A DNA stretch of 64,000 nucleotides. It comes from Deltaproteobacteria bacterium (GTDB taxonomy: Bacteria > Desulfobacterota > Syntrophia > Syntrophales > JAAYKM01). The stretch covers positions 2,414-66,413 of the forward strand of contig JAAYKM010000032.1 of the NCBI GenBank assembly GCA_012522415.1, read 5' to 3'. The translations under genes and the position numbers were made by a program. The notes beneath the pieces were generated by a model, which saw nothing but the letters and a program-made list of their open reading frames with translations, had not been told where the DNA came from and searched no databases. Below, piece after piece: positions 4,159 to 63,931 of this stretch (within the stretch, counting starts at the first letter, position 1; every line of letters begins with the position of its first letter).

Positions 4159-4815
4159 ATAGTATCCAGGCCCTTAAGAAACAGGGCCGTTGTCGCCGCC
4201 ACGCTGACCGGACCGTCCATTTTCAAAGGGGTGAGCCGATATGACACCCAGATTTCCACTATTGCCGCCGTCCGCCATTTTCATGAGAAGGTGGGCAGCA
4301 TTATGTTTGTCGGTGGTGAGAATTTCGGCCTTATCACATTCAATGACGAAGGTGACTACGAACGCTATCGGTCAAACACCTCCTGCGCCGCCGGAACGGG
4401 CGGTTTCATTGAGGAACAGGCCGTGAAACGCGGTGTTTCTCTTTCGGGATACGCAGACCGCGCTCTGGTCGCCGTTCTGGAACACCGGTTGAAGAAACCT
4501 GTTTTTGTCTCCAGATTTTGTCACCTGACGGGTGCCCTTGGGAGCGCCCTGATCCTGGCGGAGAACGGGCTCCAACGCTCCGGTTTTCGAGGCCTTGCCC
4601 TCTGTCGGGAAGAGATGCCTGTTGAAAATGAGGTATGTGAGATTTGCCATAATCACTGCAAGATTTGTAAGGTAATTGTGCAGGGGGAAACGGTGGTGTT
4701 CGGGTTTTTGTGTGGGCGGGATTATGAGACCAAGGGTATGTCGGTCCGGCCCGGAGAAAATACGATCTTCTGGATGTGCGCCGGCAGGTGTTTCGGTCCG
4801 TAGAGAGATCCGGCC
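4159..4815 (+). pseudogene. decayed remnant of a BadF/BcrA/HgdC-type CoA-substrate-specific enzyme activase
   Basis: The frame opens after TGA at 4156. It keeps the activase motifs GGENFGLI and NTSCAAGTGGFIEEQA, then jumps directly to ..HLTGALGSALILA and the Cys cluster CEICHNHCKIC..GFLCGRDYE. The N-terminal ATPase part is missing. The frame breaks near 4765, where the sequence continues as YDLLDVRRQVFRSVE in another frame. Confidence 0.6.
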
Positions 4816-5028
4816 CTACATCAAATTTCCTCGTAAGGAATCGAGGGAAGTGTTGGCGTAGGGGCGGATGTCAGGGGAAACAAAAGGAAAGGTATGGAGT
4901 TGGAAACCTGGAGATCGTGAGAGGGTTGTGCTTGTTCCCCGGGAGAAGGGACTTATAAATACCTTGACAAGGAACGAGCCATTCCGTAACGTAACTCCCC
5001 TGAGTAACCGGGAAAAACAGGACAGGGC

Positions 5029-5439
5029 ATGTACGCACGCAAAATCGTTATCCGTTATAGTGCCGATATCGTAGAAGAGCCGATTATTTATGAGCTGGTC
5101 AAAAAACACGATCTCGTCTTCAATATTCTGAAGGCGCGTATTTTTCCGCGTCGCGAAGGTGTCATTGTCCTTGAACTGACGGGAACAAAGGAAAACTTTG
5201 ATTCCGGCATCCGCTTTCTCAAGGAAAAAGGCCTCAAGGTTGAATCCCTGTCCAAAAGCGTCAGCCAAAATCTGGACCGCTGTGTTCACTGCGGAGCTTG
5301 TACCGCATTCTGCCCAACCGGGGCCCTCTATTTCGACCGGGAAACCTGGCAGGTTCATTTCGATCCCGAGCGGTGTAACGGTTGCGAACTCTGTGTAACC
5401 GCATGTTCGGCACGCGCCATGGAGATCAATCTGTTTTAG
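5029..5439 (+). CDS. NIL domain / 2x[4Fe-4S] ferredoxin fusion protein
   Basis: The N-terminal IVEEPIIYELVKKHDLVFNILKARI is NIL-like. The C-terminus has CVHCGACTAFCP and CNGCELCVTAC. Confidence 0.75.
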   Translation: MYARKIVIRYSADIVEEPIIYELVKKHDLVFNILKARIFPRREGVIVLELTGTKENFDSGIRFLKEKGLKVESLSKSVSQNLDRCVHCGACTAFCPTGALYFDRETWQVHFDPERCNGCELCVTACSARAMEINLF

Positions 5440-5443
5440 CCTG

Positions 5444-5794
5444 TTAAGGCTTTGTGCCCTTTCCCGGTTCCGGGTGCCATATTTTATCGACTTCTTCTAT
5501 TTTCTGCTTCCCCTTTTCGATATATTCCTTGCCCATTTTGTAGCCCGTTATGCCTTTTTCTACGGATTCAATGGTTTTCTGCTCCGCTGTTTTCAGGGTT
5601 GATTGGATATTCTGTTTAGCCGTTTCCGGGTTCTTCCAGTAAAAGTATCCGTAGATACCAAGGAAGATGAGGAGAACAAGCAGGGCCATTTTGAAGAGTT
5701 TTTTAAAGAGAAACCAGGTAATAAAAAAGGCGCAGCAAACGGCTATCGCTACCGTGAGCTGGTGACTGGTTATGTAACGGATGAGTTCGTCCAT
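5444..5794 (-). CDS. small membrane protein (2 TM, Lys/Glu-rich tail)
   Basis: CAGGAGG SD before ATG at 5794. Two hydrophobic helices are followed by a charged C-terminus. Confidence 0.5.
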   Translation of the reverse strand: MDELIRYITSHQLTVAIAVCCAFFITWFLFKKLFKMALLVLLIFLGIYGYFYWKNPETAKQNIQSTLKTAEQKTIESVEKGITGYKMGKEYIEKGKQKIEEVDKIWHPEPGKGTKP

Positions 5795-6088
5795 GCTGTT
5801 AAACCTCCTGGAAAGATGATGGTTATAGACGAGCCATACAGGATAAACAATATCATACGGCGCTAATTTACAGAAAAACGCCAAGAAAATCCAGCCCTCC
5901 TTTCATCTTGACAAAGCAGGAGCCTATGAAATAGTTACGACGAAGGGACAGAAGAAAGATAATGAAATATTACGGTATATTAGATGAATACCAGTTCACT
6001 GTGGGCGTGAAAGAACCTGTAAAACCGGTCAATCGAGGGGGTATGAATTTAAAAAACGGTGCATGTTTTGCCACAGGGGCGTCAAGCC

Positions 6089-7426
6089 ATGAAGGCTGAT
6101 TTCGGGTGGGGGTACCGAAAGAAAGTGGCGATTACGACCCTGGGATGTAAGGTGAACCAGTACGAGTCATGCGCTCTGGCCGGTGAGTTTAGGAAGCGGG
6201 GCTACGAAGTCGTGCCTTTCGGTACGCCGGCCGACATTTATGTCATTAACACCTGTACGGTGACGGGCCGAAGCGATTATCAGTCCCGCCAGTTGATCCG
6301 GCGAGCCTTCCGCGCCAACCCTGGGGCAATCATTGTCGCGACGGGTTGTTACGCCCAGGTTGCTCCGGAGGAACTTGCGGTGATGCCGGAAGTATCCCTC
6401 ATCGTGGGAAACGATGAAAAGCTGACCCTGCCGGAACGCATCGAAGCGATGGGTGACGGCAACGGGAAGGTTCAGGTCGGCGACATCTGGCATGTGAAAC
6501 ATATTAATTTCCGGTCGGTTTCGTTTTTCCCAGATCACACCCGGGCCTTTCTCAAAATCCAGGATGGATGCAACGCCTGTTGCAGCTACTGCATTGTGCC
6601 GACGGCCCGAGGCAGGAGTCGGAGTCTTCCTCGGGAAAGCGTGTTGACGGAGCTGCGACGTCTGGGGCAAAGCGGATATCAGGAGGTCGTTCTGACGGGG
6701 ATTCATCTGGGGGCCTACGGTCAGGATTTGCCGGAGCCGATGGGGTTGCTCGATATGTTGAAGGCTGTAGAAAAGGAGCGACCCGTTTCCAGGATCCGTC
6801 TGAGTTCCCTGGAACCGGCCGAGATATCCGACGAATTGGTTGATTGGGTTGGGAGATCGAACGTAATCTGCCCGCATTTCCATGTTCCCCTGCAAAGTGG
6901 GGACGATGATGTGCTGCAATCCATGCGACGCGCCTATGATCGCGCCTTTTTTCACGCCTTGATTGAAAAAATTAGGGCGAAGGTGCCTCGGGCAGCCATT
7001 GGCGTCGATGTCATGACAGGGTTCCCGGGCGAGGATGAGGCGGCCTTCCAGAATACCTTTGATTTGATCGCGTCCCTGCCTTTAACCTATCTCCATGTTT
7101 TCCCCTATTCGCGAAGGCACGGGACGGCGGCGGCGGTCATGGAGGGACAGGTGGAGGAGAAGGCCAAGAGGGGGCGGGCGGAGGCGTTGAGACTTCTGGG
7201 AGCCGGGAAAAAGGAAGAATTCGCCCGCTCGTTTGTCGGCGCCGAACTACCCGTTCTGATCGAAGGTTACGGCGGCAGAGATAAAAAAAACATGAGGGGA
7301 TGGACGGACAATTACCTGGCCGTGATTTTTGAACAGGGGAACCCCGATTGGATCAACCAGATTGTCCCTACCCGGATTTTGGACGAAGAAAGGGGACAAC
7401 TCAGGGGGAGGGTCAATCATGCCTGA
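6089..7426 (+). CDS. mtaB: tRNA (N6-threonylcarbamoyladenosine) methylthiotransferase MtaB, a MiaB-like radical SAM enzyme
   Basis: KVAITTLGCKVNQYES is the UPF0004 domain, CNACCSYCIVP is the radical SAM CxxxCxxC motif, and a TRAM-like C-terminus is present. The track start 6059 is an upstream GTG. Confidence 0.85.
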   Translation: MKADFGWGYRKKVAITTLGCKVNQYESCALAGEFRKRGYEVVPFGTPADIYVINTCTVTGRSDYQSRQLIRRAFRANPGAIIVATGCYAQVAPEELAVMPEVSLIVGNDEKLTLPERIEAMGDGNGKVQVGDIWHVKHINFRSVSFFPDHTRAFLKIQDGCNACCSYCIVPTARGRSRSLPRESVLTELRRLGQSGYQEVVLTGIHLGAYGQDLPEPMGLLDMLKAVEKERPVSRIRLSSLEPAEISDELVDWVGRSNVICPHFHVPLQSGDDDVLQSMRRAYDRAFFHALIEKIRAKVPRAAIGVDVMTGFPGEDEAAFQNTFDLIASLPLTYLHVFPYSRRHGTAAAVMEGQVEEKAKRGRAEALRLLGAGKKEEFARSFVGAELPVLIEGYGGRDKKNMRGWTDNYLAVIFEQGNPDWINQIVPTRILDEERGQLRGRVNHA

Positions 7427-8141
7427 GAAACGGGATCGTATTTTGCGGCGGTTGGAGGCAAAACTTGGTTATCGGTTCAGGAACAGGGCTCTCCTGGACC
7501 AGGCTCTGACCCACCGTTCCTTTGTCCATGAGAACCCGGATTCGACATTGGAAGACAATGAGCGGATGGAGTTTTTAGGCGATGCCATTTTGGGGTTCTG
7601 CGTCAGCGATATGCTGCTTAGAACTCATGAACATTTCACGGAGGGCCAGCTTTCAAAGGCTCGGGCGTCCCTGGTAAAAGAGGGCTCCCTCAGTATCGTT
7701 GCCGGCATGATTGGCCTGGGTGATTATGTTCGTCTGGGCAAGGGCGAAGAAGCTTCGGGGGGGAAAACCAGGGTCTCCACCCTTGCGGATACACTGGAGG
7801 CTGTGGTGGCCGCTATTTATATGGATGGCGGACTCAGGGAATTGACCGGGTGGTTTCATACTTTTTTTGTTCCTCTCCTGGAACGTAACCCGGAGAAGTT
7901 CCGCTACGCAGATTACAAAACGGCGCTCCAGCAGGTCGCACAGAAAAAATTTCGCGATATTCCAGCTTACACCCTCATCGGCTCATCCGGCCCTGATCAT
8001 CGGAAGCTTTTTGAAGTCCGGCTTGTCACCGGAAACATCGTTACGCAGGGCACCGGGAGGACCAAAAAGGAAGCGGAGCAGGGGGCGGCGCGCCAGGCCC
8101 TGGCGCTGATCGAAGACGATGGCGGGGAAAAGCCGAAATGA
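7419..8141 (+). CDS. rnc: ribonuclease III
   Basis: LTHRSF..NERMEFLGDAIL signature plus a C-terminal dsRBD (KTALQQ...GTGRTKKEAEQGAARQAL). The start ATGCCTGA overlaps the mtaB stop. Confidence 0.92.
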   Translation: MPEKRDRILRRLEAKLGYRFRNRALLDQALTHRSFVHENPDSTLEDNERMEFLGDAILGFCVSDMLLRTHEHFTEGQLSKARASLVKEGSLSIVAGMIGLGDYVRLGKGEEASGGKTRVSTLADTLEAVVAAIYMDGGLRELTGWFHTFFVPLLERNPEKFRYADYKTALQQVAQKKFRDIPAYTLIGSSGPDHRKLFEVRLVTGNIVTQGTGRTKKEAEQGAARQALALIEDDGGEKPK

Positions 8142-8197
8142 CGGCGATGTGAAGGAGACAAGCCAAAATAAACAGACGAAACGAAAAGGAGCAATGA

Positions 8198-9883
8198 ATG
8201 GGTGAGCCAGGCAACAAGATCATTTTTTCCATGATTCAGGTGAGCAAATTTTACGACAAAAGACCGGTGATCCAGGATATTTCCCTGTCGTATTTCTACG
8301 GCGCAAAAATCGGCGTTTTGGGCCTGAACGGCTCGGGAAAAAGTTCGCTCCTGCGGATCATGGCCGGGGTGGACAAGGAGTTCAACGGCCAGCTCATCTT
8401 CAGCCCGGGTTACTCTGTCGGTTTGCTCGAACAGGAACCACATCTGGACGACACCAAGACGGTGCGGGGCATCGTTGAGGAGGCCGTTGCGGAAACAGTC
8501 GAACTGGTGAACGAATATAACCGGATCAACGAGCGGTTCGCCGAACCCATGTCTGATGAAGAAATGGACCGACTTATCGCCCGCCAGGGGGAAGTGCAGG
8601 AAAAACTGGATGCCCTGGATGCCTGGGACTTGGACGAGCGTCTGGAGATGGCCATGGATGCCCTGCGCTGCCCGGAGGGAGACACGCCGGTTGAGATCCT
8701 CTCCGGCGGCGAACGGCGTCGCGTCGCCCTGTGCCGGCTCCTTCTGCAGAAACCGGATATCCTGCTGCTGGACGAGCCGACAAACCACCTGGACGCGGAA
8801 ACCGTGGCCTGGCTGGAGCATCATCTGCAGCGATACGAGGGAACGGTCATTGCCGTGACCCACGACCGCTATTTCCTGGACAACGTCGCCGGCTGGATTC
8901 TGGAACTGGACCGCGGCCGGGGCATCCCGTGGAAGGGGAACTACTCTTCATGGCTGCAGCAGAAGCAGGAACGTCTGCGACAGGAGGAAAAAGCCGAAAC
9001 CCAGCGCCAGAAAACCCTGCAGCGGGAACTCGAATGGATCAGCATGTCCCCCAAGGCGCGGCAGACGAAATCCAAGGCCCGGATCAGCGCCTACGAGGAA
9101 CTCCTTGCTCAGCAGGGCGAGGCCCGCTCCGAGGAACTGGAAATCTATATTCCCCCGGGGCCTCGCTTGGGTAGGGTCGTTGTGGAAGCCGAGGATGTAT
9201 CAAAGGGTTACGGGGACCGTCTCCTCTTCGAGAGGATGAATTTTCTGCTTCCGCCGGGCGGAATTGTCGGGATCATCGGCCCGAACGGCGCCGGAAAGAC
9301 GACTCTGTTCCGGATGATCACGGGACAGGAAACACCGGATGCCGGTCAGATCCGCGTCGGCGAGACGGTCAAACTGGCCTACGTGGACCAGAGCCGGGCC
9401 AGTCTCGACCCGGAAAAGTCGATCTGGGAGGTTATTTCCGGCGGCCGGGATACGCTGCAGTTGGGGGATGTATCGGTTAAGTCGAGGGCTTACGTGGCCA
9501 GGTTTAACTTTTCCGGGGCGGACCAGCAGAAAAAGGTGGCCAACCTCTCCGGTGGGGAACGGAACCGGGTGCACCTGGCCTGTATGCTGAAGGAAGGGGC
9601 CAACGTCCTCCTCCTGGATGAACCCACAAACGACCTCGATGTGAATACCCTGCGTGCCCTGGAGGAGGCCCTGGAGAATTTCGCCGGTTGCGCCGTCGTG
9701 ATCAGCCATGACCGGTGGTTCCTGGATCGTGTGGCCACCCACATCCTGGCCTTTGAGGGTGACAGCAGCGTCGTCTGGTTCGAGGGCGGTTATTCCGATT
9801 ACGAGGCGGACCGGAAAATGAGGCTGGGCGCGGCAAGCGACCGTCCCCGCCGGATCAAGTACCGCCAGTTGACCCGGGCGTGA
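8198..9883 (+). CDS. ettA: ABC-F translational throttle protein EttA
   Basis: 561 aa with two ABC cassettes ([16 protein letters not shown], two LSGGE signatures) and an EttA-like N-terminus and length. Confidence 0.88.
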
Positions 9884-11310: not shown

Positions 11311-11895
11311 CTACATCATCATTGGTCCCCGGAAGACGATGCCCCGGACGATTCCATTCATGATTACCTGAATGATGATGGCAACCAGAAGGGTGGTAAC
11401 GAAGAAGCCGAGGTGTTTTTCGGCAGGTGCATCCGTCAACTGCTTGATGCCCAGGTAAAGGAGATAAAGACCGTAGAGCCCGGCGATCAGGGTGATCACC
11501 CCCAGAGCCGGAACAATCAGGAAAACGCCGCTGATCCAGAAAGGGGTCATGGAGAAAACCGCGATTTTGAAGGCAGCCCCCATATCCCGTGTAGCGCCAA
11601 AATTTTGCGAGAGACGATCAATGATTATGGCCAGCAGGTATACGCCGACCAGGCTCAGAACATAGCTCAGCAGGCAATAAACCAGACCATACTGGAGGGG
11701 CAAACGGAACGTGCCCAGGCCAAAGGAAAACCCGATGACGCTGAATCCAATAAAACCGCCCAAAGCCGGGATGGCCGCCAGGATCATGGCATATTGCTTG
11801 AAAAGATCCGCCGTCGTGCAGGTTTCGCCTTTGATCACCTCCCACTCCGAAGCCGGGGACAAAATGATGTTTTTGACTCTCTCGACCAGATTCAT
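11311..11895 (-). CDS. Yip1-family integral membrane protein
   Basis: AAGGAGG SD before ATG at 11895. 5 TM with a Yip1/DUF1282-like N-terminus (MNLVERVKNIILSPASEWEVIK). Confidence 0.65.
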   Translation of the reverse strand: MNLVERVKNIILSPASEWEVIKGETCTTADLFKQYAMILAAIPALGGFIGFSVIGFSFGLGTFRLPLQYGLVYCLLSYVLSLVGVYLLAIIIDRLSQNFGATRDMGAAFKIAVFSMTPFWISGVFLIVPALGVITLIAGLYGLYLLYLGIKQLTDAPAEKHLGFFVTTLLVAIIIQVIMNGIVRGIVFRGPMMM

Positions 11896-12037
11896 ACGCA
11901 CCTCCTTCATTCATTTTTTAAGGACCAGTTCACAACCCAAAAAATAAATTCCCCTTCCAACCTTTATTGATGTGGTCGGCTCTTTTTCCGGCCGGATTGC
12001 ATGGACGGCCATGGTCGGGTTTTCAGACGACGCTGCA

Positions 12038-12349
12038 CTATTTTATAGAGACCGGGTCACCTTTCGGTGCCATTTGGTTTTTTCGGAAGGTGTCAATGAT
12101 TCTTTTGAGGGAAGTCTGTTCGTCATCGTAGGTAATGATAATCAGATTGTCGACTCCGTCCTCGAAATGACGGATCCCCTGCATATTTTCCAGAACAACC
12201 CGTGCCCTGGCGTGACCTCCTCACGAATCGTAGCCGGGAATAGCCAGCTGGACAACGCGTTCTTCCGCATACAGGGGTATGGCGAAGAGGTTTGTCAGCA
12301 TGAACATGAAGGCGACGAGTAAGGCATGGGGAAAGAACCGGACATTCAT
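12038..12349 (-). CDS. candidate selenoprotein: secreted MerP/CopZ-like heavy-metal-associated (HMA) domain protein with in-frame UGA (Sec) at codon 43
   Basis: ATG at 12349 with AAGGA upstream. The signal-like N-terminus is MNVRFFPHALLVAFMFMLTNLFAIPLYA, followed by EERVVQLAIPGYDS, then TGA at 12223-12221. The same frame continues GGHARARVVLENMQGIRHFEDGVDNLIIITYDDEQTSLKRIIDTFRKNQMAPKGDPVSIK to TAG at 12040-12038. The joined sequence follows the HMA pattern, with the TGA at the first-Cys position of the GMTCxxC motif. It is absent from the ORF track because both halves are shorter than 60 aa. Confidence 0.6.
12190..12210 (-). promoter_or_regulatory. putative bacterial SECIS hairpin
   Basis: 10 nt after the UGA lies CCAGGGCA-[CGGGU]-UGUUCUGG, an 8-bp stem (2 G-U pairs) with a G-rich 5-nt apical loop. 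The loop starts 18 nt after the UGA, which fits the bSECIS geometry I recall. Confidence 0.5.
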
Positions 12350-13934: not shown

Positions 13935-14417
13935 ATGAGGCTTCTGAAGTTCACCCTGAATGATGATGCAATCGAGATCGGGGTTCAAGACGGTGAGACA
14001 CTCCTCGAAGTGCTGCGGCACCGTTTGGGCATGACGGGGACTAAGCAGGGCTGTGACCAGGGCGAGTGCGGCAGTTGCACGGTTCTTCTGGATGGGCAAC
14101 CCGTTTTATCCTGTCTCACTTTGGCAGTTCGCGTGGATAAACGCCAGGTGACGACCATTGAAGGCCTTGCGGTGGGCGGTAATCTGCACCCTGTTCAGGG
14201 GGCCTTTCAAGAGGCTGGGGCGATTCAGTGCGGTTTCTGCACTCCGGGGATGGTTTTGACGGCCAAAGCGCTGCTGGATCGGCGGCAGGATCCTCAACGG
14301 GAGGAGATCAAGGCGGCTCTTGCGGGGAATCTCTGTCGTTGCACCGGGTACAAAAAAATCGTGGAAGCGGTTGAGCTGGCGGCAACGCGGCTGGGGAAAC
14401 ACGATGGCCGGGGATAA
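13935..14417 (+). CDS. [2Fe-2S]-binding small subunit of a xanthine dehydrogenase-family molybdoenzyme (CoxS/HcrC-like)
   Basis: GCDQGECGSCTV and QCGFCTPGM...CRCTGY are the two [2Fe-2S] motifs. Confidence 0.88.
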   Translation: MRLLKFTLNDDAIEIGVQDGETLLEVLRHRLGMTGTKQGCDQGECGSCTVLLDGQPVLSCLTLAVRVDKRQVTTIEGLAVGGNLHPVQGAFQEAGAIQCGFCTPGMVLTAKALLDRRQDPQREEIKAALAGNLCRCTGYKKIVEAVELAATRLGKHDGRG

Positions 14418-16698
14418 CGTCTACCACTGCATCGGCCGGGGCAGGCCGCGGACCGACAGCCTGGCCAAGGTGACCGGAGCGGCGCAGTTTACAGCCGATA
14501 TTCCGGTGCACCGTTGTCTGGTGGGAAAAATTCTCCGATCCCCTCATGCCCATGCCCGGATCCTCTCCATCGATACGCAAAGGGCGAAGGCCCTTCCGGG
14601 AGTCAAGGCGGTGGTCACCGGCGTGGATGCTCCGGTCAAATACGGTATTTTGCCGGTTTCCCAGGATGAATATCCCCTGGCGGTGGAAAAGGTGAGGTTT
14701 GTCGGTGATGAGGTTGCCGCGGTGGCCGCCGTCGATGAGGCAACGGCCCTGCGGGCCCTTGAACTCATTGAGGTGACCTATGAAGTGCTCCCCGTTATTC
14801 TCGATCCCCATGAGGCTCTTGTTCGGGAGGATGTAAAAATTCACGAACGGGCCGTGGAAGCCAATATTGAACGGCGGGTGCATCTGGTTTTCGGTGATCT
14901 GGAACAGGCCTTTGCCGAAGCGGATTATATCCGGGAGGATCGCTTCTTCAAAGAGGCCGCGAGTCATGCCTTTCTTGAACCTCACAGCGCCCTGGCGCAG
15001 TATCAGGACGGCAAACTCACCCTCTGGAGTTCAACCCAGGTGCCCCATTATGTCCATCGTTCCCTATCCAGCGTTCTCCGTATCCCCATGGAGAAAATCC
15101 GGGTGATCAAGCCTGCCCTGGGCGGCGGATTCGGGGGAAAAGGCGAGCCCCTGCCGCTGGAATTCGCAGCATCGCTTCTGGCCATGAAAACGGGTCGACC
15201 CGTCCGGGTCATCCACAGCAGAGAAGAGGTGTTTCTCACCCATCGGGGACGTCATCCCATGGAAATGACTCTAAAAACCGGGGTGAAACAGGATGGGACG
15301 ATCACGGCGGTTCAATTCAGCAGTCTGTTGGACGGCGGGGCCTACGGTTCCTACGGCGTTGTGACCATGATCTATTCCGGGCAATTGCTGACAGCGCCTT
15401 ATCGGGTTCCCGCTTACGCCTTTGACAGCGTGCGTGTATTCACGAACAAACCGCCTTGCGGTGCCCAACGCGGCCATGGTGGCGTACAGCCGCGTTTCGC
15501 CTTTGAAGTGCATTTGGACCGGATTGCCGCCGATCTGGGAATCGATCCCCTGGAAATACGCCGACGGAATGCCATAGAGGCGGATACGGTCACGGTGAAT
15601 GAACTGCGCATTACGTCCTGCGCATTCAAGACGTGCCTGGACCGGGTTGCGGAGACAGTGGATTGGAAGAACAAGCATGGCAAGCTGCCCTACGGAAAAG
15701 GTGTAGGCCTGGCCGGGGGATTTTATGTGACAGGGGCGGCCTATCCCATCTACGCCAATCCCATGCCTCATTCCCAGGTACAAATAAGGGTGGATCGTAA
15801 CGGGGGGGTGACCGTTTTTTCCGGTGCTTCCGACATCGGCCAGGGTTCAGATACGCTGCTGGTCATGATTACCGCGGAAACGCTCGGCATTCCGGAGACG
15901 TCGGTTCGCGTCGTTTCCGCCGACACGGAAATAACGCCGGTTGACCTCGGTTCCTATTCCAGCCGGGTGACCTTTATGGCTGGGAACGCCTGTCATCAAG
16001 CCGCTCTGGAGATCCGTGACCGTCTGCTTGCCGTCTGCGCGAAAGAACTGGAACGAAACCAGAAAGATCTGAGGTTCAGGGAAGGGCACCTATTCGCAAA
16101 GGAAGCTCGGGAGCCCCTGATGACTTTTGCCGAAGCGTCCGTTCTGGGGGAGGCCTCCGGAGTCGCCTTGTGCGCTTTGGGGAGTTATCGTCCACCGGAA
16201 TTGGCCGGTTCCTACAAGCTTGGAGGCGTGGGGCCGTCTCCGGCCTATTCCTTCGGCGCCCAGGCGGCGGAGGTGGAGGTAGACACGGAAACCGGAGAAA
16301 TCCGGGTCGTGAAAATCCACTGCGCCCATGACTTGGGGTTTGCCCTCAACCCCCTGGCTGCATCCGGTCAGGCTGAAGGGGCCGTCGTCATGGGATTCGG
16401 TGAGGCGGTGCTGGAGCATCACGGTTTTTCCCCGGGAGGCCGTCACAATGGCCCCACCTTTTTGGATTACAAAATTCCAACCTGTCTCGATGTGCCCGAT
16501 GTGGACGTTACACTCGTTGAGAGTATCGATCCGGCAGGGCCCTACGGGGCGAAGGAAATCGGCGAAGGAAGCCTTCATCCAAGCCTTCCCGCCATTGTGA
16601 ACGCTCTGTACGATGCGGTCGGTTGCTGGTTTCACGATCTGCCCCTGACGGCGGAGCGGGTTCTGGCGGCTCTTGATCACAAGGAGACTCCTTCATGA
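14404..16698 (+). CDS. molybdopterin-binding large subunit of a xanthine dehydrogenase-family enzyme (aldehyde oxidase / 4-hydroxybenzoyl-CoA reductase alpha-like)
   Basis: About 764 aa with GRPRTDSLAKVTGAAQFTADI, GGGFGGK, GAQRGHG and GAKEIGEG. The start overlaps the small-subunit stop. Confidence 0.88.
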   Translation: MAGDNVYHCIGRGRPRTDSLAKVTGAAQFTADIPVHRCLVGKILRSPHAHARILSIDTQRAKALPGVKAVVTGVDAPVKYGILPVSQDEYPLAVEKVRFVGDEVAAVAAVDEATALRALELIEVTYEVLPVILDPHEALVREDVKIHERAVEANIERRVHLVFGDLEQAFAEADYIREDRFFKEAASHAFLEPHSALAQYQDGKLTLWSSTQVPHYVHRSLSSVLRIPMEKIRVIKPALGGGFGGKGEPLPLEFAASLLAMKTGRPVRVIHSREEVFLTHRGRHPMEMTLKTGVKQDGTITAVQFSSLLDGGAYGSYGVVTMIYSGQLLTAPYRVPAYAFDSVRVFTNKPPCGAQRGHGGVQPRFAFEVHLDRIAADLGIDPLEIRRRNAIEADTVTVNELRITSCAFKTCLDRVAETVDWKNKHGKLPYGKGVGLAGGFYVTGAAYPIYANPMPHSQVQIRVDRNGGVTVFSGASDIGQGSDTLLVMITAETLGIPETSVRVVSADTEITPVDLGSYSSRVTFMAGNACHQAALEIRDRLLAVCAKELERNQKDLRFREGHLFAKEAREPLMTFAEASVLGEASGVALCALGSYRPPELAGSYKLGGVGPSPAYSFGAQAAEVEVDTETGEIRVVKIHCAHDLGFALNPLAASGQAEGAVVMGFGEAVLEHHGFSPGGRHNGPTFLDYKIPTCLDVPDVDVTLVESIDPAGPYGAKEIGEGSLHPSLPAIVNALYDAVGCWFHDLPLTAERVLAALDHKETPS

Positions 16699-17684
16699 CC
16701 CTCCCCGAACTGGATGTTCTGAAGCCAGGGACGCTTGCCGACGCGCTGCGGTTACTGAGAGAAAATCCCGATGCACGGCCGATAGCAGGAGGGACCGATC
16801 TGCTGGTTCTGATGAAACAGCGATTGGTTAATCCGAAAACTCTCATTGATGTCAGCCGACTGTCCGAATTGCAGGATATCGCGGAGCAGGACGATAGTCT
16901 TCGCATCGGCGCCGCCGTTCTCTTGACCGAAATTACGGGTAACGACCGGATCAACAGGGATTACCCCGGCCTGGCGGAAGCGGCCCGGTTCGTGGCGAGT
17001 CCAAACCTCCGGAATATGGGCACGATCGGCGGTAACATCTGTTTGACGCCCCGATGTTCATACTTCAACCAATCCCAATTTTGGCGCGACTCTCTTGGTC
17101 GCTGTCTGAAAACCGGCGGCGACGTATGTTTTGCGGTTCCCGGGGCCAGGCGCTGCTATGCCTCTTTCTGTGCAGATTGTCCCCCCGTACTGATCGCCCT
17201 GGGTGCGACTGTCACAATTGTCCGGTGGAAAAAGGGAGGTGTGACGGAACGTCGGGGTTCACTTGAGAGTATCTAGCGGGACGACGGTGTAAAGCCCTTA
17301 TCTCAGTGGCGGGACGAATTGGTGACGGCGGTGCATCTGCCCTTGAAGGGAAAAGGATATCGTTCAGCCTATTTGAAATACCGACGCCGGGCTTCCATCG
17401 ACTTTCCCCTGGCCGGTGTTGCCGTGGCCTTTGGCCTGGAAGAGGGGAAGTTCAAGAATATCCGCATCGTGCTGAACGCACTGGCCTCTTCACCGATTCT
17501 GGCAGGGGAGAGCATGGCCCGTTTGGAGGGAGAGCCATACAATGAACGTGTCGTGGAAGATGCGATGACCTGTCTGGCCCGGGGAGCGCATCCGGTTCGC
17601 AATCAGGCGGGGTCCCCGGAGCATCGTCGTCGAATGGCTGGAATTCTCTTCCGGAGGGCGGTGGGAAGACTCATCAATGTGTAG
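16695..17684 (+). pseudogene. FAD-binding medium subunit (CoxM/HcrB-like) with a Cys-rich insertion, interrupted by an in-frame TAG at 17274-17276
   Basis: The track ORFs 16695..17276 and 17319..17684 are in the same frame. The N-part has PIAGGTDL and MGTIGGNIC. The C-part has AVHLP..YRSAYLKYRRRASIDFPLAGVAV (CO-dehydrogenase flavoprotein C-domain). The stop falls where homologues have an aromatic residue (..LESI*RDDG..). Confidence 0.75.
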
Positions 17685-18329: not shown

Positions 18330-18884
18330 TTATAAAACCGTCTTCAGTATGTAATCCAGCACTTCGTTCAGGTTTGAAAATAGCCTGAAGCCGTGGTTCG
18401 CACAGACCTGATTCCACGGGCATAATAACCCCGTTGCCGGGATACCACTGGTTAAAGCCGTCTTCAGAGTGGGCGGCGCGTCATCCACGATGACATCCGC
18501 CCTGGAGAAAAGCACGGTTTTGTCCAGAGAGAGATGGAGTTCATCGTAGGGCAGTCTGTGCTTTTCAAGCCATTGTTCGGTTGGTGGCCTTGTCGAGGGT
18601 ACACGATGGCTGGCTAGGGTAAGGTGGTATCCATTTGCCTTGAGAGCGGAGAGAAAATCCCGGGCCTCGGGATAGGGCTGATACAAATCATTTTCTTGGC
18701 CATGATGAATTGTATTGATTGCGGTAAAGAAATCTTCCTGAGAACAGTATGTTTCCCATATGTCGAAATTGAACCATTGATCTGGCGAGGGAAAACGGGT
18801 GTTTATTTTTTTGAGTTCAGAATACAGGGCGTCACTGAAAGGCCAGAGGGTGTTATCGATGTCGATGATTGCTGTCCGGGTCAA
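18330..18884 (-). CDS. HAD-superfamily hydrolase (5'(3')-nucleotidase-like)
   Basis: IIDIDNTLW is the DxD motif I and a VIVDD motif lies near the C-terminus. TTG start. Confidence 0.55.
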   Translation of the reverse strand: MTRTAIIDIDNTLWPFSDALYSELKKINTRFPSPDQWFNFDIWETYCSQEDFFTAINTIHHGQENDLYQPYPEARDFLSALKANGYHLTLASHRVPSTRPPTEQWLEKHRLPYDELHLSLDKTVLFSRADVIVDDAPPTLKTALTSGIPATGLLCPWNQVCANHGFRLFSNLNEVLDYILKTVL

Positions 18885-33231: not shown

Positions 33232-33484
33232 TCCGTAAACTTTGCAGACTCCCGTTCCATTCCACATCATCTGTAACGGGGCGATAAGCGGAATGCACAA
33301 ATAGGCCATTGTGCGGTCTCTGTCAAGAGGTCTTCGTCGAATCCTGAAAAGGAACATGGGCGGTGAAAAGCAGGCGATCAGGACATCGAGGGCCGTAAAC
33401 GGCCCTTGCGGGACTGTTTAGGATTGCAATTATTCATGATTGGGAATAGAAAGAAACGCACCAGTGATGGAAGGATTGAACAAC

Positions 33485-42737: not shown

Positions 42738-42765
42738 TTGACAGGATAGAATTGATGTTTATTAT
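42738..42765 (+). promoter_or_regulatory. sigma70-type promoter of groES-groEL
   Basis: TTGACA (42738-43), a 16-nt spacer and TATTAT (42760-65), about 70 nt upstream of the groES ATG. Confidence 0.5.
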
Positions 42766-43137: not shown

Positions 43138-44787
<1,650 letters not shown>

Positions 44788-48294: not shown

Positions 48295-48567
48295 CCGCAG
48301 ACGACCAGGGAACGGCCATACCAGCCGGCACGGACTGCTTGCTGGGTAGAGGAGTATGAGCGGCGCTACCCGGACGCTATACGGCTTCTGAAGGAAGGTC
48401 TTAAGGATACCCCGCCGTTTCTGACTTTTCCCTTTCTTGATCATCGAAAGATCAGTTCTACCAACCTCATTGAACGCTTCCATCGCGAGATTGGGCGACG
48501 GTCCCGGGTTGTAGGCATCTTTCCCGGCATGGATGCCTGCCTTCGCCTGGGGTCACCACATACCTGA
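48295..48567 (+). mobile_element. C-terminal remnant of an IS256-family (Mutator-type) transposase
   Basis: The frame is open only for 48295-48564: ..WVEEYERRYPDAIRLLKEGLKDTPPFLTFPFLDHRKISSTNLIERFHREIGRRSRVVGIFPGMDACLRL. This matches the conserved IS256 transposase C-terminus from memory. No N-terminal part or inverted repeats were seen. Confidence 0.65.
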
Positions 48568-48948
48568 TTGCATATGTATATGGCGAGGATGTGACTGCGG
48601 ACATCCTGATCGTCGAAAAAATCGGGGCAACAGAGGTCCTGATAGCGGGCAAAGAGATCGCCGCCAAGGTGGCCAAAGGCATGATTTCTCCCAATGTACT
48701 TGACTATCTCCCTTCTCCCTTTGTCCGAGAAACATATGCTTTTTGAGATGGCTCCACCGAACAGTTTTTTGGGAAAATCCATCCGTGCCTTGGAGCTTCG
48801 GCGCCAGTACTATATCGAGGTTCTTGGGGTAAAGGAGAGCATTACCGATGAAGTGAAAATGATGTTCCGTGCAGGTTTCATCATCAAGGACGGGGGGATT
48901 CCGGTCGTGTTCGGCAAGGGAAAAGATATCAGAGAGAGCACGCAGTGA
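48552..48948 (+). pseudogene. 3' remnant of a TrkA/KtrA-type K+ transport regulator (RCK_C/TrkA-C), 5'-truncated and frameshifted
   Basis: ..ILIVEKIGATEVLIAGKEIAAKVAKGMISPNVLDYLP is in one frame. LSEKHMLFEMAPPNSFLGKSIRALELRRQYYIEVLGVKE..GFIIKDGGIPVVFGKGKDI follows in another frame (track ORF 48694..48948). The shift coincides with a tandem 7-bp duplication, CTCCCTT x2, at 48708-48721. Confidence 0.6.
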
Positions 48949-54273: not shown

Positions 54274-54586
54274 TCAAGAAATATTTCCCGACTGTGTCTG
54301 GCCCCTCTCCTTCAACTTCTCCAGTTCCTTCCGATAGCGTTCCGCCTCAACCTTGGCGGCTTCCGCGTCTTCCCGGGCTTTGCGGACGGCCATTGCCTGC
54401 CGTTCCTGTTTCCGATCAAGTCTGTTCTGCAGATCACCGAAGCCGATACAGGCGACTAAAACACCTCCGGCAAGAAGCAGAAACGGGATTCCCCCCTCTC
54501 AACAGGACAAGAAAATCGTCGAACCACAACACGAAGCCAAGCAAACCCAGAATGGTGGAAATAATCCCCCCGACGAACCAAGCCAT
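54274..54586 (-). pseudogene. small 2-TM membrane protein with a coiled-coil tail, frameshifted at a G6/C6 homopolymer
   Basis: GAGGT SD before ATG at 54586. MAWFVGGIISTILGLLGFVLWFDDFLVLLRGG is followed by the run at 54491-54496. The original frame stops at 54436-54434. With one base removed the frame continues IPFLLLAGGVLVACIGFGDLQNRLDRKQERQAMAVRKAREDAEAAKVEAERYRKELEKLKERGQ.. to TGA at 54276-54274. The total of 313 nt is 3n+1. Confidence 0.5.
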
Positions 54587-55232: not shown

Positions 55233-56107
55233 ATAATCATGTACTAAGGATTGGTCTTCCCAAGGGAAGTTTGGAGCAAAATACGATCGACCTCTTCAAA
55301 AGGGCAGGTTGGCATATTTCTTACGACAGTCGGAGTTATTTCCCCGATATTGACGACGATGAAATGAATTGTACTCTGGTGAGGGCTCAAGAGATGTCCC
55401 GTTACGTCGAGGACGGAAATATTGATCTGGGGTTGACGGGGCGTGATTGGATTCTGGAGAATGAGTCGGATGTGGTTCTGGTGCAGGATCTGATTTATTC
55501 CAAAGTATCGGCCCGGCCGGCTCGGTGGGTGCTGGTGGTACGCCAGGATTCACCGATTCGTACGCTGGAGGACATGCAGGGTAAGCGCATATCGACTGAA
55601 CTGGTCAATTTCACGAAAAAATATTTTTCCGAGCGGAAGATTGATGTTCATGTTGAATTTTCCTGGGGTGCGACGGAAGCAAAGGTCGTGGAGGGACTTG
55701 TTGACGCCATCGTGGAAGTGACGGAAACGGGTTCAACGATCCGGGCCAATAAGTTACGTATCGTTCAGGAGATGATGACGACCAATACCCAGCTGATTGC
55801 GAACCATACTGCCTGGAACGATCCCTGGAAACGACAAAAAATTGAGCAGATTCGATCTCTTTTGAACGGATCCTTGCAGGCCATGGGAAAAGTTGGGGTG
55901 AAGATGAACGTGGAGAAAGAAAATCTGGGCAGGGTCATTCTGTTGCTGCCGTCATTAAAGGCCCCGACCATTTCCGGTCTCTATTCGGAGGAATGGTATG
56001 CTGTGGAAACGATCGTTGATCAGAATGTGGTCAGAGATTTGATTCCCCTTCTACAGGAAGCTGGCGCGGAAGGAATCATTGAATATCCTCTGAACAAAGT
56101 CATCTAG
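55229..56107 (+). CDS. hisG: ATP phosphoribosyltransferase (long form)
   Basis: [10 protein letters not shown]..., TGRDW and [13 protein letters not shown] with a C-terminal regulatory domain. ATGA overlap with hisI. Confidence 0.9.
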
Positions 56108-56117: not shown

Positions 56118-56708
56118 ATGAAAAGAAAAGGAGAGATCTACCGAAAAACCGCGGAAACGGAGATCAATTTATCCGTAAACCTGGATGGGAAGGGGGAGGC
56201 TGATCTGATTTCATCAGTTCCTTTTCTTGATCATATGTTGAATCTGCTCGCCCATCACGGCGGCTTGGATATGTTCGTTCGGAGCCAGGGTGATACACAG
56301 ATCGATGATCATCATTTGGTGGAGGATCTCGGCATTTGTCTGGGGGAAGCCGTGAAACAAGCTCTTCGGGATAAGAGTGATATCAAGCGTTACGGATCCG
56401 CCCTGATACCGATGGATGAGACCTTGTGCAACGCGGCGATTGATATCTCGGGGCGGCCTTACCTGGTTTACCATAGCGCATTGAAAGACCGAAAGATCGG
56501 GGGGTTTGATTCATCCCTTCTCCGGGAGTTTTTCAAAGCCTTTACGGACCACGCGGGTGTCACATTGCACATCAACGTCTTGTATGGTAGAAATACACAC
56601 CACATTGCGGAGGCCATTTTCAAGGCCTTTGCCCATGCTTTCAAGGAAGCTGTCGCACGTGGCCACAGTCAGAAAGGTGTGCTTTCGACGAAGGGAAGAC
56701 TGGATTAA
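56118..56708 (+). CDS. hisB: imidazoleglycerol-phosphate dehydratase
   Basis: RKTAETEI...PFLDHML...DDHHLVEDLGI...NTHHIAEAIFKAF. Confidence 0.92.
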   Translation: MKRKGEIYRKTAETEINLSVNLDGKGEADLISSVPFLDHMLNLLAHHGGLDMFVRSQGDTQIDDHHLVEDLGICLGEAVKQALRDKSDIKRYGSALIPMDETLCNAAIDISGRPYLVYHSALKDRKIGGFDSSLLREFFKAFTDHAGVTLHINVLYGRNTHHIAEAIFKAFAHAFKEAVARGHSQKGVLSTKGRLD

Positions 56709-58238: not shown

Positions 58239-58286
58239 GAAAATCCGGACGAACAGGTTGCGCATTTTGCAACGGGAGGGCACATA

Positions 58287-58631: not shown

Positions 58632-58759
58632 AGCCATCGAGAAATCATTATGAATGCCTTGGACAATTTTCTCATATCAGCTTGGTTGACAAAATAAATT
58701 CATGGTTTATCTTAGATTCCGGTAGGTGAGATTTAACAGAAGCTTATCAGGAACGGGTA

Positions 58760-59316: not shown

Positions 59317-61155
59317 TTGACCGGGTACGTTTCCCAAGAAAAGATTGACGAGATCAGAGACAGGGTCGATATCGTTCATCTGATATCAGAGTATGTTACC
59401 CTGAAAAAAATGGGCCGCAATTTCACTGGACTTTGTCCCTTCCATAAGGAAAAAACACCCTCATTTACTGTCAGGCCGGACAAGCAGATCTTCTTTTGCT
59501 TTGGTTGCGGCCTTGGGGGGAATGCATTTTCTTTTCTGATGCATATCAACGGTATGACATTCCCGGAGGCAATCCGTTATCTGGCTTCAAAAACTGGGGT
59601 TTCGCTTCCCGGGTCTCCATCCCACGCACGAACCGCTGCACGATCAAGCGAGAAAGAACAAATTTATCTCGTCAACAAGGAAGCTTCTCAATGGTTTGTC
59701 AGAAATCTTGCGATGAAGGAGAATGCATCTATCCGTGCCTACTTGGGAAACCGGGGGATTACGCCAGGGGTGATTGAGGCCTTTAGTCTGGGATATGCGC
59801 CCAATAATTGGAGCGGTCTGCGGAACCATTTTGAACGTGGGAAAATCGCGGTTGAATGGGCTGAAAAAGCGGGGCTGGTCGTTACCGGAAGGGAAGGGTC
59901 ATATTATGACCGTTTCCGGGGGCGATTGATGATTCCCATTGAAGATACGGAAGGACGTATTATCGCATTCGGGGGAAGGTTGCTGGATCAGGGTGAACCG
60001 AAGTATCTGAATTCCCCGGAAACACCCGTTTACATCAAGGGACGGTGCCTTTACGGATTGAGCAAATCCAGGGAGTATATTCGGAAAGAAGGCCACGCGA
60101 TTCTTGTCGAGGGATATTTTGATTTCCTGTCCCTGTGGGGCGCAGGGATTCATTCCGTGGTCGCATCTTTGGGGACGGCGCTTACGCAGGAGCAGGTGGC
60201 TCTGCTCCGGCGTTACACTCAGAAAGTCTTTGTTGCATTTGATGCCGATGTGGCGGGTCAAAGAGCCCTGATGCGGAGTTTCGAACTTTTTCTGGCGGCC
60301 GATATCGACGCATTGGCCGTGACGTTGCCGGCTGGAGGTGACCCGGACAACTTCATCCGGGCTTATGGGAAGGAAGGGTTTTTGGAGGCCATCGGTGCTG
60401 CCCAGCCGCTTGAGACTTATTGTTTGGATCAGTTGTGGGGGGGCGAAAAAACGTTGATTGGTGAAAAAAACGCAGTCAAAAAGGCGGTTCAACTTAGCCT
60501 GAATATTACTGACCCCATCGCCCGGAATCTCTTTCTCCGACGAATCTCCGAACGATTCGGTGTTGATTATGAGGTACTGCAACGAGAGGTTCGCGGCACA
60601 CAGAACATTTCATTACCTCCTGCATCGAATCGACAAACGGACAGCCATAAGGGTTCCGTGGCTGATCGGGTCGACAAACTGGAGTTGTCGATTGTTCATC
60701 TGATGCTGGAAAAACCGAATAAGATTCGACGTGTTGTAGAGGACAATGCTCTCACATATTTTTCTGAGGGGAGTTTGAAAGTCCTCGCCGAGCAAATCGC
60801 AACGACTGTGGGAAGGGACGGCAGGGGAATGATCGATCTGGATGGTTTGGTTGGCCTACTCGACCGTCCGTCCATCCGGGAAGCTGTTCTGCGGCTGGTC
60901 ATGGAGGAACAGCCGATTTCTGACGAACTTGCTGATCGCATATATGACGATGTCTTGAACAAGCTGAGACGTCGATGGTTCAAAAAGAAGCGTGGGAATC
61001 TGCAGGCGAAACTGGTTAAAGCGCAACAGGATCGAAACGAAACTTTACAGCTGACCTTGATACAGGAAATTGAATACCTCGTACAAGAAGAAAAAAAGCG
61101 TGTTGTCGGCAATCATGGGGATATACTGAAATTCCGGGAGAGGGCAAATGGATAA
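59317..61155 (+). CDS. dnaG: DNA primase
   Basis: [13 protein letters not shown] zinc finger, a TOPRIM domain (ILVEGYFD...[11 protein letters not shown]). TTG start. Confidence 0.92.
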
Positions 61156-62836
61156 AGAAATCAAGTCAGAGGAATTTAAAAAATTGCTGTCATTGGGCGA
61201 GGAAAAGGGCTTTCTCACCTACGATGATGTGAACGATTTATTGCCCACAGAGATTGTCTCTTCCGAGCAGATCGACGATATCCTGATCCTATTCGGCGAG
61301 AAGAACATCGATATCATTGATCCCGAAAAAGAAGAAATCCCGCAGATCAAAAAGGTTGCCGAGGATCGAAGTAAGACCAAGGAAGGGAATGTCCTCGGAC
61401 TTATCTCCACGGTCGGAAAAACTGGTGATCCCGTAAAAATGTATCTTCGAGAGATGGGCCTCGTGTCCTTACTGAGCCGGGAAGGAGAAGTGGAGATTGC
61501 AAAAAAAATTGAAGATGGTCTCAAAGAAGGCATGGACTCTGTTTTCTCCTCACGCCTGTCTATTAGAGAGATAATGGACCTGGGAGAGGAGTTGCGCAGT
61601 GGTGAAGTGCGGATCAAAAACCTCGTCGATAACCTTGATGACGAGGAAGGGAGTCTCGAAGAGGATACGCAAAAAATTCGGATACTCAACCTGATCGACA
61701 AGATCGCCAACCTGGACAGAAAAAATGAGGAAATCAGAAAAAAACTCAAATCCAGGGGGCTTGATGAAGATGAAAAGGAAGCCCTCAAAGCGGGTATAAT
61801 CAAGAACCACAAGCAAATTATCCGGCATTGTCGCAAAATCCGCTTTAACCAGAAACAGATTGATCGCATGATCGGCCGGATCAAGCAGGCCTTGTCAGAT
61901 ATTGAAGCCGCTGAGGAAAAAATTCAGTCCTGCAGGGATGAATCTTGCCTGTCACGTGCCCAGTTGGAGAAACTTTGGGTGCGTATGCGTAAATTCCCCG
62001 AAGAGGAAAAAATCATCCAGCGCGAAACAGGCATCAATGCCGCGAAATTACGGCATTATGAGGAAACAATCAAGAGTGCAGACAGGGAAATAAAAAGGAT
62101 TGCCGCTGAATCCGCCCACACACCCTCATCTCTGAAAAAATTGGTAATCGCTATGGAAAAAGGAGAACGCAAGGCAGAGCGGGCGAAGCGGAAGCTTGTG
62201 GAAGCCAACCTCCGTCTTGTGGTCAGTATTGCCAAAAAATACACCAATCGCGGTTTGCAGTTTCTTGATTTAATTCAGGAAGGCAATATCGGCCTCATGA
62301 AGGCGGTGGAAAAATTTGAGTATCAGCGGAGGTACAAGTTCTCAACCTACGCCACCTGGTGGATCCGTCAGGCCATCACCCGGGCCATTGCCGATCAGGC
62401 GAGGACCATTCGTATTCCAGTCCATATGATTGAAACCATTAATAAACTGATTCGTACATCCAGATACCTTGTTCAGGAACTAGGCCGGGAACCGAACCCC
62501 GAGGAAATTGCCAACAAAAAGGGCTATCCCTTGGATAAAGTGAGGAAAGTCCTGAAGATTGCCAAGGAACCCATTTCCCTGGAAACCCCCATCGGTGAGG
62601 AGGAGGACAGCCACTTGGGAGATTTCATTGAAGACAAGAAGATCATGTCCCCCTCTGAGGCCACGATCAGTATGGATCTGGCCGACCAGACCAGGAAAAT
62701 CCTGGCCACTCTTACACCCAGGGAGGAAAAGGTTGTGCGAATGCGTTTCGGAATCAGTGAACGGATCGAATACCAGGAAGATGAAGACCGCCGCTATAGG
62801 GAAGTTGCAGGCGGTTCCGCTCTTGAAGGAGAGTAA
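61148..62836 (+). CDS. rpoD: primary sigma factor RpoD (sigma70) with an aberrant or truncated 3' end
   Basis: Regions 1.1 to 4.1 are canonical ([11 protein letters not shown]; [40 protein letters not shown]; TIRIPVHM; [15 protein letters not shown]). After RMRFGI the sequence reads [26 protein letters not shown] instead of the region 4.2 HTH. Confidence 0.85.
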
Positions 62837-62965
62837 GCGTCAGGATAATCATATTGGGACGGGGCCATTCGGGTGAACCTGATAACGGGTTCCGATGAAT
62901 TAGGATTTGACACCGGGAGATAATTGTTATAACTGTCTGCGAAGTTTTTCAATCATAGGGACGTA

Positions 62966-63041
62966 GGGCCCATAGCTCAATTGGTAGAGCCACCGGCTCA
63001 TAACCGGTAGGTCCCTGGTTCGAACCCAGGTGGGCCCACCA
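62966..63041 (+). tRNA. tRNA with CAU anticodon (Met, or Ile2 read via lysidine)
   Basis: It folds as a cloverleaf: acceptor GGGCCCA/TGGGCCC, D arm GCTC-AATTGGTA-GAGC, anticodon arm ACCGG-CTCATAA-CCGGT, T arm CCTGG-TTCGAAC-CCAGG, and an encoded CCA. G1-C72 is paired, so it is not an initiator. Confidence 0.9.
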
Positions 63042-63153
63042 AGTTGTTCCATAAAGCGGGAAGAAGTATAGGCTATGCGTATGAAGGGTAAAGTTTTACC
63101 GGCGCGATTCAATATGGAAACACGAGTTTCGGCAGAAGCTTGCCTCTAAATGA

Positions 63154-63179
63154 ATGCACCTCTAGCGGGTGCATTTTTT
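63154..63179 (+). terminator. rho-independent terminator downstream of the tRNA
   Basis: ATGCACC-TCTAGCG-GGTGCAT followed by TTTTTT. Confidence 0.7.
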
Positions 63180-63211
63180 CTACCAAATTATCTGGGGAAA
63201 GGGAGAAATAA

Positions 63212-63931
63212 TTGATAGAAGACCTTCAGTTGTTCATCTAACTGCAAAGAAGTGATTCCGATGCGGCACGGATCAAAATAAAAAAGAAGGAACTGCCGGA
63301 GCGTATTGCGAGGCTTGATCAAGCCTTCCAGATCATGCAACAGAAGCTAGAGGATTTTCGAGTTCATCTGGAAGATTTGCGCAGCCAGTACCGGGAAAGG
63401 GAGGACAAACTGAGACAGGGACAGGACGGGTTGAAGAAAGCCAGGGAACGTCTCGAGTTAGTCAAAAATAACAAAGAATATCAAGCTATTCTCAAAGAAA
63501 TCGATAGCATGGAAAAGAAGAACGGTGATGTGGAATCGGAGATCATTGGCCTTTTCGATGCCATAGATAAGGAAAACGGTGAGTTGGAACAGCGGGAGAA
63601 GGACTTTGCTGGGGAGTCAAACGCCTATCAAACGAACCGGAATAAACTGGAACTGGAAATGAAGTCTCTTGATGAAAGTATTGCCGAATGCCAGGCGAGA
63701 AACGGGCGGATTAGAGGCTCCCTCGGGGAAAATCTGATCCGCAAATATGAGGCCATCCGGAACCTGCATAGGGACGTTGCCGTTGTTTCTGTCTGGAAGG
63801 GGGTCTGCAACGGCTGTCATATGAACATACCTCCTCAGATGTATAATGAATTGCAGAAGACCACCGTGTTGATGTCCTGTCCCCATTGCAACCGTATTAT
63901 TTACTGGCAAAATGCGGAAGAAAATTCTTAG
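63212..63931 (+). pseudogene. COG1579-type zinc-ribbon / coiled-coil protein interrupted by an in-frame TAA at 63239-63241
   Basis: The track ORF 63335..63931 has a long coiled coil and a C-terminal CNGCHMNIPPQ...CPHCNRI zinc ribbon. The same frame upstream reads (TTG)IEDLQLFI*LQRSDSDAARIKIKKKELPERIARLDQAFQI with a GGGAG SD before the TTG. The full span of 240 codons fits the family length I recall. Confidence 0.6.

Follow-up and report, generated by a model that had tools for sequence, protein, structure and literature searches.

The question raised by the 64,000-nucleotide stretch of DNA analysed here (positions 2,414 to 66,413 of contig JAAYKM010000032.1 in GCA_012522415.1, a metagenome-assembled genome (MAG) from the order Syntrophales; hereafter the window) is why it appears to hold so many lesions in otherwise conserved genes. 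An earlier note had listed in-frame stops in groEL, in the flavin adenine dinucleotide (FAD)-binding subunit gene of a molybdenum hydroxylase and in a COG1579 gene, a damaged rpoD 3' end, two frameshifts, three gene relics and an in-frame TGA in an HMA-like gene, and had proposed consensus errors, ongoing pseudogenisation or site-specific recoding as explanations of a single window-wide pattern. Re-reading of the sequence and Pfam scans located all of these lesions at their claimed positions, with the exception of the deletion or frameshift ascribed to rpoD. Their grouping did not hold, since the items separated into assembly-private, species-fixed and lineage-wide ones. Very probably, the list brings together three unrelated things, namely consensus errors of one MAG contig (the three stops in groEL, the FAD subunit and COG1579), old and genuine relics, frameshifts and a TGA, and an undamaged rpoD 3' end that is native to Syntrophales. 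The window-wide pattern is a mixture of separate classes and no biological phenomenon of its own. Consensus error would account for the three nonsense codons, which are private, clustered and free of any trace of selection, though substitutions, and not for the remaining items. Pseudogenisation would apply to the non-essential relics and frameshifts, but neither as an ongoing process nor in the essential genes, because these lesions do not vary among the assemblies, from two strains, compared below.

Ten window proteins were found by exact look-up under locus tags beginning with GX147_ (NLN59610-NLN59656), and the same kind of look-up returned no exact match on record for the window Maf protein. 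Look-ups by GroES, HisG, the 4HBT thioesterase, YqeY, the 2Fe-2S subunit and the COG1579 protein identified at least eight other public assemblies that carry the species of the window, from anaerobic-digester sources. Strain A, to which the window belongs (99.96% identity), is represented by contigs of GCA_001577815.1 (LSQX) and by MGnify and Logan assemblies of runs SRR3166066 and SRR3166067, while strain B, 99.0-99.6% identical, is represented by JGI contig Ga0172382_10000609 (67 kb), ENA contig k141_1500360 (76.6 kb), GCA_034002525.1 and others. LSQX is a whole-metagenome assembly of BioProject PRJNA283612, which sampled biogas-upgrading reactors (PMC5985405). A scan of GTDB genomes with RpoD placed the window closest to species representatives of Syntrophales; among the matches listed, RpoD identity did not exceed 69% and the window's own genome did not appear. 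Same-strain contigs cover about 45.8 kb of the window, and differences private to the window were verified there; the 9.5 kb compared without a same-strain contig shows 40 synonymous and 29 mostly conservative differences and no stop, which resembles normal divergence between strains. Strains A and B are separated by single-base indels at 33339, 39883 and 48891, and no private indel was found in the window against the other assemblies.

In groEL (patch at 43504-43575, plus strand), codon 141 is TAG in the window (43573-43575). At 43573 the window has T, and all six other covering contigs have C (CAG, Gln) and encode a 544-aa GroEL. The stop is accompanied by further private substitutions, seven in 70 bp (43504-43573) with the effects R>W, G>G, I>T, V>A, T>P, Q>R and Q>TAG, which alter GroEL DVKRGIDKAVETVVAELKKQSKPTKDQ at conserved residues, for example from KRGIDKA to KWGTDKA. 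The canonical sequence is found across the patch in all 6-8 other assemblies that cover it, three same-strain contigs (L007, L008 and L009) among them, and a 36-mer containing the TAG found no match in JGI metagenome contigs. The 140-aa GroEL fragment likewise had no exact match on record, and no exact GroEL product of the window was present in the protein collection, perhaps because the gene was annotated as a pseudogene. Contigs of four independent assemblies (L005, L008, L009 and L010) stop at 43313-43540, within the first 400 bp of groEL, as if the assembly graph were tangled in this conserved gene.

The second patch lies in the gene for the CoxM/HcrB-like FAD-binding subunit (17269-17307, plus strand), where six substitutions in 39 bp convert ENLYRDDGVKPLSLG to ESI*RDDGVKPLSQW (N>S, L>I, Y>TAG at 17274-17276, L>Q and G>W). 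At 17276 five other assemblies have C (TAC, Tyr), and they encode an intact 329-aa protein. A contig break of the same-strain LSQX assembly (between 17296 and 17429) is spanned by the patch, and the deposited record splits this xanthine-dehydrogenase-family subunit into NLN59610 (193 aa) and NLN59611 (120 aa), both called 'hypothetical proteins'. The third patch comprises eight private substitutions in 86 bp (63164-63249, plus strand) covering the upstream region and the 5' end of the COG1579/CT398 zinc-ribbon gene, including E>TAA at 63239-63241. Position 63239 is T in the window and G (GAA, Glu) in six other contigs, same-strain L112 (LSQX01210510.1) among them, with an intact 239-aa protein; the deposited product, NLN59656, is a 198-aa fragment. 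When a conserved 36-mer of this gene was used in the metagenome scan, only the strain-B JGI contig matched.

Outside the patches, eleven isolated private substitutions (4851, 21674, 27481, 27931, 37086, 39408, 39876, 41610, 62330, 62520 and 63915; eight nonsynonymous, one synonymous and two intergenic) set the window against every covering assembly, including a same-strain contig. One of them changes Gly to Arg in RpoD at 62330 (RGYKF to RRYKF), a position held by Gly in 15 of 15 fetched homologues. Altogether 29 private substitutions were verified, 18 of them in the three patches. Such clustering is not expected by chance: the simulated probability that any 90-bp interval holds at least four is 3.5 × 10^-4, and the Poisson probability of at least seven in 90 bp is 4 × 10^-13. 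Nonsynonymous or nonsense changes outnumber synonymous ones by 20 to 3 among private coding changes, versus 82 to 154 among strain-level changes (n = 236; Fisher p = 1.3 × 10^-6), and transitions and transversions stand at 14:15 versus 220:54 (p = 3 × 10^-4). The private changes are without a selection signature. These data make it nearly certain that the three nonsense codons stem from sequence errors private to this MAG assembly, and they indicate that, judged from the sister contigs, the organism's real groEL, FAD-subunit and COG1579 genes are intact.

As a control, every other assembly was screened for positions at which it alone differs. MGnify assemblies ERZ941570 and ERZ941572 of the same strain (SRR3166066 and SRR3166067) contained equivalent private patches at places where the window is correct. 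In hisB (window 56376-56475), contig L012 has 11 substitutions in 100 bp, including K>stop, and its gene call is shortened to 89 aa; in the large subunit gene of the molybdenum hydroxylase (window 14514-14599), contig L106 has six in 86 bp, including G>stop, and the gene is split into 65 and 667 aa. Smaller patches were observed in hisG (L018; window 55633-55701, three substitutions in 69 bp) and in an NT5C-like gene (L015; window 18353-18361, three in 9 bp). Therefore, stop-generating patches recur in PRJNA283612 assemblies of the strain, in different genes each time. Assemblies from other projects mostly had zero or one private difference, and one short contig (L020, run DRR821167) had three.

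Another explanation for the three stops is that the genes concerned have recently become real pseudogenes in the sampled population, their loss being buffered by paralogues or relaxed selection. The stops do stand in the deposited record, genuine fixed pseudogenes of the species exist in the window, and groEL paralogues may lie outside it. However, independent point mutations would not crowd six to eight changes into 39-86 bp at each of three unlinked loci, of which one is in part intergenic, and the private transition to transversion ratio is about 1. Moreover, same-strain contigs from elsewhere hold the genes intact, and the sister assemblies show like patches in different genes, which makes this explanation highly improbable. 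The patches could also be chimeric joins, at which the assembly would have switched for a short distance to a related species in the sample or to a divergent paralogue. Congeners with 80-87% identical RpoD do occur in similar samples, and groEL is both conserved and the place where four other assemblies break their contigs. However, a functional homologue would differ mainly at synonymous sites and would be without stops, whereas about 85% of the coding changes in the patches are nonsynonymous, each patch holds a stop and one is half intergenic; chimeric joins are thus left with a slender chance. Mutagenesis by a diversity-generating retroelement was ruled out as a source of the patches, because the changes are not adenine-specific.

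How the errors might have arisen can be outlined from the contigs. Low-quality single reads would have bridged thinly covered or tangled spots of the assembly graph, leaving three patches of 39-86 bp, below read length and with about 10% substitutions, together with 11 scattered single changes, so that, beside the three stops, at least 26 other substitutions would be errors. Such single-read bridging of low-coverage spots would be consistent with a low-coverage rescue step in MEGAHIT, whose 'mercy k-mer' rescue of low-coverage gaps Li et al. are said to have described in 2015. Judged from the style of its accession, the window's MAG probably belongs to a biogas-microbiome deposit. The biogas MAG collection was assembled with MEGAHIT v1.1.1 (PMC7038595). 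With known short-read MAG consensus errors, the window shares changes confined to one assembly, restriction to substitutions, patches shorter than a read, the lack of a selection signature and sister assemblies that are hit elsewhere; it differs from them in the high error density of its patches, about 10%.

Several points weigh against consensus error as the source of the stops. Even by the standard of poor Illumina read tails, about 10% substitutions across 40-90 bp is a high density, and k-mers seen in a single copy are usually thrown out by assemblers. The bridging mechanism is deduced from assembled contigs, and it is a presumption that the GX147 MAG and the sister assemblies come from the same read sets. 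In addition, the sister assembly has contig breaks near two of the patches but not near the third, about 18 kb of the window is without same-strain coverage, and three sites of the FAD-subunit patch (17303, 17305 and 17307) were compared with strain B only. The yield of stops, three among 23 private coding changes, is somewhat above the random expectation and is compatible with random substitution (p = 0.08).

The second class comprises the G6 frameshift, the 7-bp duplication, the IS256, TrkA and activase relics and the TGA. From their conservation among assemblies, these are genuine old lesions in dispensable genes, the outcome of ordinary genome decay. They are identical in both strains and hence predate the strain split, so they are not a sign of ongoing decay.

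One frameshift affects a small membrane protein gene (54274-54586, minus strand) encoding about 100 aa with two predicted transmembrane helices and a coiled coil, in which an extra G has expanded a G5 run to G6 (54491-54496). The same run is present in every covering assembly of both strains, and the protein repaired by removing one G aligns over its full length with unbroken syntenic genes in 13 Syntrophales relatives (for example L023, 2752-3051). This gene falls in no Pfam family and is located upstream of hisI across Syntrophales. The other frameshift is a perfect tandem duplication of CTCCCTT (48708-48721), common to all covering assemblies, in a trkA/ktrA C-terminal relic (48540-48948, plus strand) that gave weak Pfam TrkA_C matches (E = 3 × 10^-4 and 8 × 10^-4). 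The strain-separating indel at 48891 lies inside this relic, where small open reading frame (ORF) calls vary between assemblies. Adjoining it, and found in all covering assemblies, is a C-terminal relic of an IS256-family (Mutator) transposase (48295-48564, plus strand; PF00872, E = 7.5 × 10^-15, model positions 293-364 of 379). A collapsed relic of a BadF/BadG/BcrA/BcrD-type ATPase, a coenzyme A (CoA)-enzyme activase (4231-4803, plus strand), is weakly matched by PF01869 (E = 1.2 × 10^-3, model positions 108-166 of 271), and its ORF is also called in other assemblies of both strains.

The in-frame TGA (12223-12221) interrupts a gene for a small secreted HMA-like protein (12038-12349, minus strand) with a visible ribosome-binding site and signal peptide, and it is unchanged in both strains. 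A word-indexed homologue search with this gene returned nothing, and an exhaustive HMMER search, with the last 60 aa of the protein as query, found one informative homologue, P0148 (115 aa), which aligns without gaps across the TGA at 41% identity. P0148 has Trp at the stop, indicating that the TGA arose by a TGG-to-TGA change. In Pfam scans the window protein had no HMA match and P0148 only a weak one. Antisense to the gene, several pipelines call a plus-strand 'hypothetical protein' (11972-12322, 103-116 aa). This ORF is probably spurious; the HMA-like gene opposite it has the better support and is missed by gene callers owing to its in-frame TGA. In their kinds, the lesions of this class resemble those of ordinary bacterial pseudogenes, with an insertion sequence relic beside a cut trkA, frameshifts by a homopolymer and by a short duplication and a Trp-to-stop change, all fixed in both strains. 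Unlike what is ordinary, the share of decayed genes (four to five of about 60 within 64 kb) gives the impression of being slightly high for a free-living bacterium.

Recoding was the remaining proposal, by which the TAG and TAA codons would be decoded by a suppressor transfer RNA (tRNA) or as pyrrolysine, the TGA as selenocysteine, and the G run by a programmed +1 frameshift. The TGA and the G6 frameshift are indeed conserved in both strains, the ancestral LLRGGIPF would be read again if the ribosome slipped by +1 on A-GGG-GGG-A, and the Trp of P0148 fits readthrough of UGA to Trp, for which UGA is naturally leaky. However, the TAG, TAG and TAA sites are CAG, TAC and GAA (Gln, Tyr and Glu) elsewhere in the same strain, leaving nothing to decode there. 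Moreover, the TGA stands in the context Y-D-S-UGA without a CxxU redox motif and opposite a W in the homologue, and a scan of the window for CxxU and UxxC motifs revealed no convincing selenoprotein. The sole tRNA of the 64-kb window is a tRNA-Met with a CAT anticodon (62966-63041, plus strand; ARAGORN and Rfam), so the check for suppressor tRNAs suggested earlier came out negative within these bounds. This tRNA was also the only match of an Rfam scan at gathering thresholds, which detected no selenocysteine insertion sequence (SECIS) or other recoding element in the window, and the 67-nt fold after the UGA of the HMA-like gene was at the level of shuffled sequences (z = -0.06, for a single sequence that allows no covariation). 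TAG, TAA and TGA all terminate ordinary genes of the window, which also bears out the view of the earlier note that a global codon reassignment is unlikely. Compared with known systems of stop-codon recoding (selenocysteine with SECIS, pyrrolysine, suppressor tRNAs and reassigned codes), the window is alike in having conserved genes with in-frame stops, but its TAG and TAA stops are absent from the same strain elsewhere, and neither a recoding signal nor a suppressor tRNA was found in it. Recoding as a general explanation is barely credible, being neither needed nor supported, and a small possibility is left for the G6 frameshift and the TGA only.

The third class consists of rpoD (61148-62836, plus strand), whose start is overlapped by dnaG (59317-61155). 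It encodes a primary sigma factor of 562 aa that is intact and native, with a tail (62756-62836) in place of the canonical region 4.2. Regions 1.1, 1.2, 2 and 3 are all present (PF03979, PF00140, PF04542 and PF04539, each above threshold). The 3' end is identical in strains A and B, and a clade of homologues at 80-87% identity matches it in length and ends in a similar tail (SERIE[YF]xE[ED][ED][DE]RR[YI]RE...), which speaks against the deletion or frameshift placed near 62760; its listing as a lesion is a misreading of a lineage-wide trait. Across a wider sample (loci L021-L042 and L057, with tails at about 11560-11760, and proteins P0025-P0069), a degenerate tail was found in 23 of 23 Syntrophales loci, including the complete S. 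buswellii genome, as against a near-invariant tail in 57 of 57 non-Syntrophales; RpoD of S. aciditrophicus (P0069) is degenerate as well. Syntrophales tails extend 50-56 aa after RMRFG (versus about 54 elsewhere) and are scrambled beyond RMRFGISER. Correspondingly, the window RpoD scored 17.8-19.2 bits with Sigma70_r4 (PF04545), below the 24.1 cut-off and over model positions 2-27 of 50 at most, whereas controls scored 68-70 bits over the full model; two Syntrophales scored 42 and 28, and the rest 15-19 (matches 2-18 to 2-27). On the strength of these alignments, the primary sigma factor encoded next to dnaG natively has a degenerate region 4.2 across the order. The loss is graded, from a diverged but recognisable region to full replacement by acidic or basic tails.

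The TTGACA element upstream of tRNA-Met is conserved in 19 of 19 Syntrophales loci (window site 62907-62912), and the window also has TTGACA upstream of groES (42738-42743) and yqeY (58686-58691). Spacers to the -10 element had a mode of 15-16 bp in Syntrophales versus 17-18 bp elsewhere, in a sample that is dominated by two or three orthologous, non-independent promoters and has ambiguous -10 assignments; the spacer is possibly 1-2 bp shorter in this order. We tentatively consider that the canonical region 4.2 was lost order-wide while TTGACA persisted, and that, if there is no second canonical sigma-70, the -35 element is recognised by an undescribed route or promoters are read without region 4.2, which is conceivable but rather doubtful. 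An engineered E. coli sigma-70 without region 4.2 was reportedly active at extended -10 promoters (by the account attributed to Kumar et al., 1993). Our search of the literature for a sigma-factor peculiarity of Syntrophus or Syntrophales found no description of one. Eroded sigma factors have been described in reduced endosymbionts (bioRxiv 10.1101/2020.09.07.285775). The Syntrophales protein is akin to the E. coli truncations and the endosymbiont factors in keeping regions 1.1-4.1 and in lacking, at least in recognisable form, the helix-turn-helix by which the -35 element is read; unlike them, it represents the natural state in a free-living order that includes cultured Syntrophus and has kept TTGACA.

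The FAD subunit considered above is encoded in a three-gene molybdenum hydroxylase operon (13935-17684) with the 2Fe-2S and molybdenum cofactor-binding subunits, adjoining the 4HBT thioesterase gene, and one source names it '4-hydroxybenzoyl-CoA reductase subunit beta'. The operon, the thioesterase and the activase relic (4231-4803) may hint at aromatic-acid metabolism.

For annotation of this MAG, these results mean that groEL, the FAD subunit and COG1579 are to be annotated as intact, of which the record splits or shortens two as 'hypothetical proteins', and that about 17 further amino-acid changes in the contig, the G>R change in RpoD among them, are untrustworthy. They also provide a cheap, read-free recipe for recognising MAG errors, in which independent same-strain assemblies are compared and private differences are tested for clustering, nonsynonymous to synonymous ratio and transition to transversion ratio, and a warning that assemblies of PRJNA283612 reads hold stop-generating error patches at varying places. 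Unlike the lesion pattern, the degeneracy of RpoD region 4.2 in Syntrophales is worth following up, as it bears on promoter recognition in an ecologically important syntrophic lineage.

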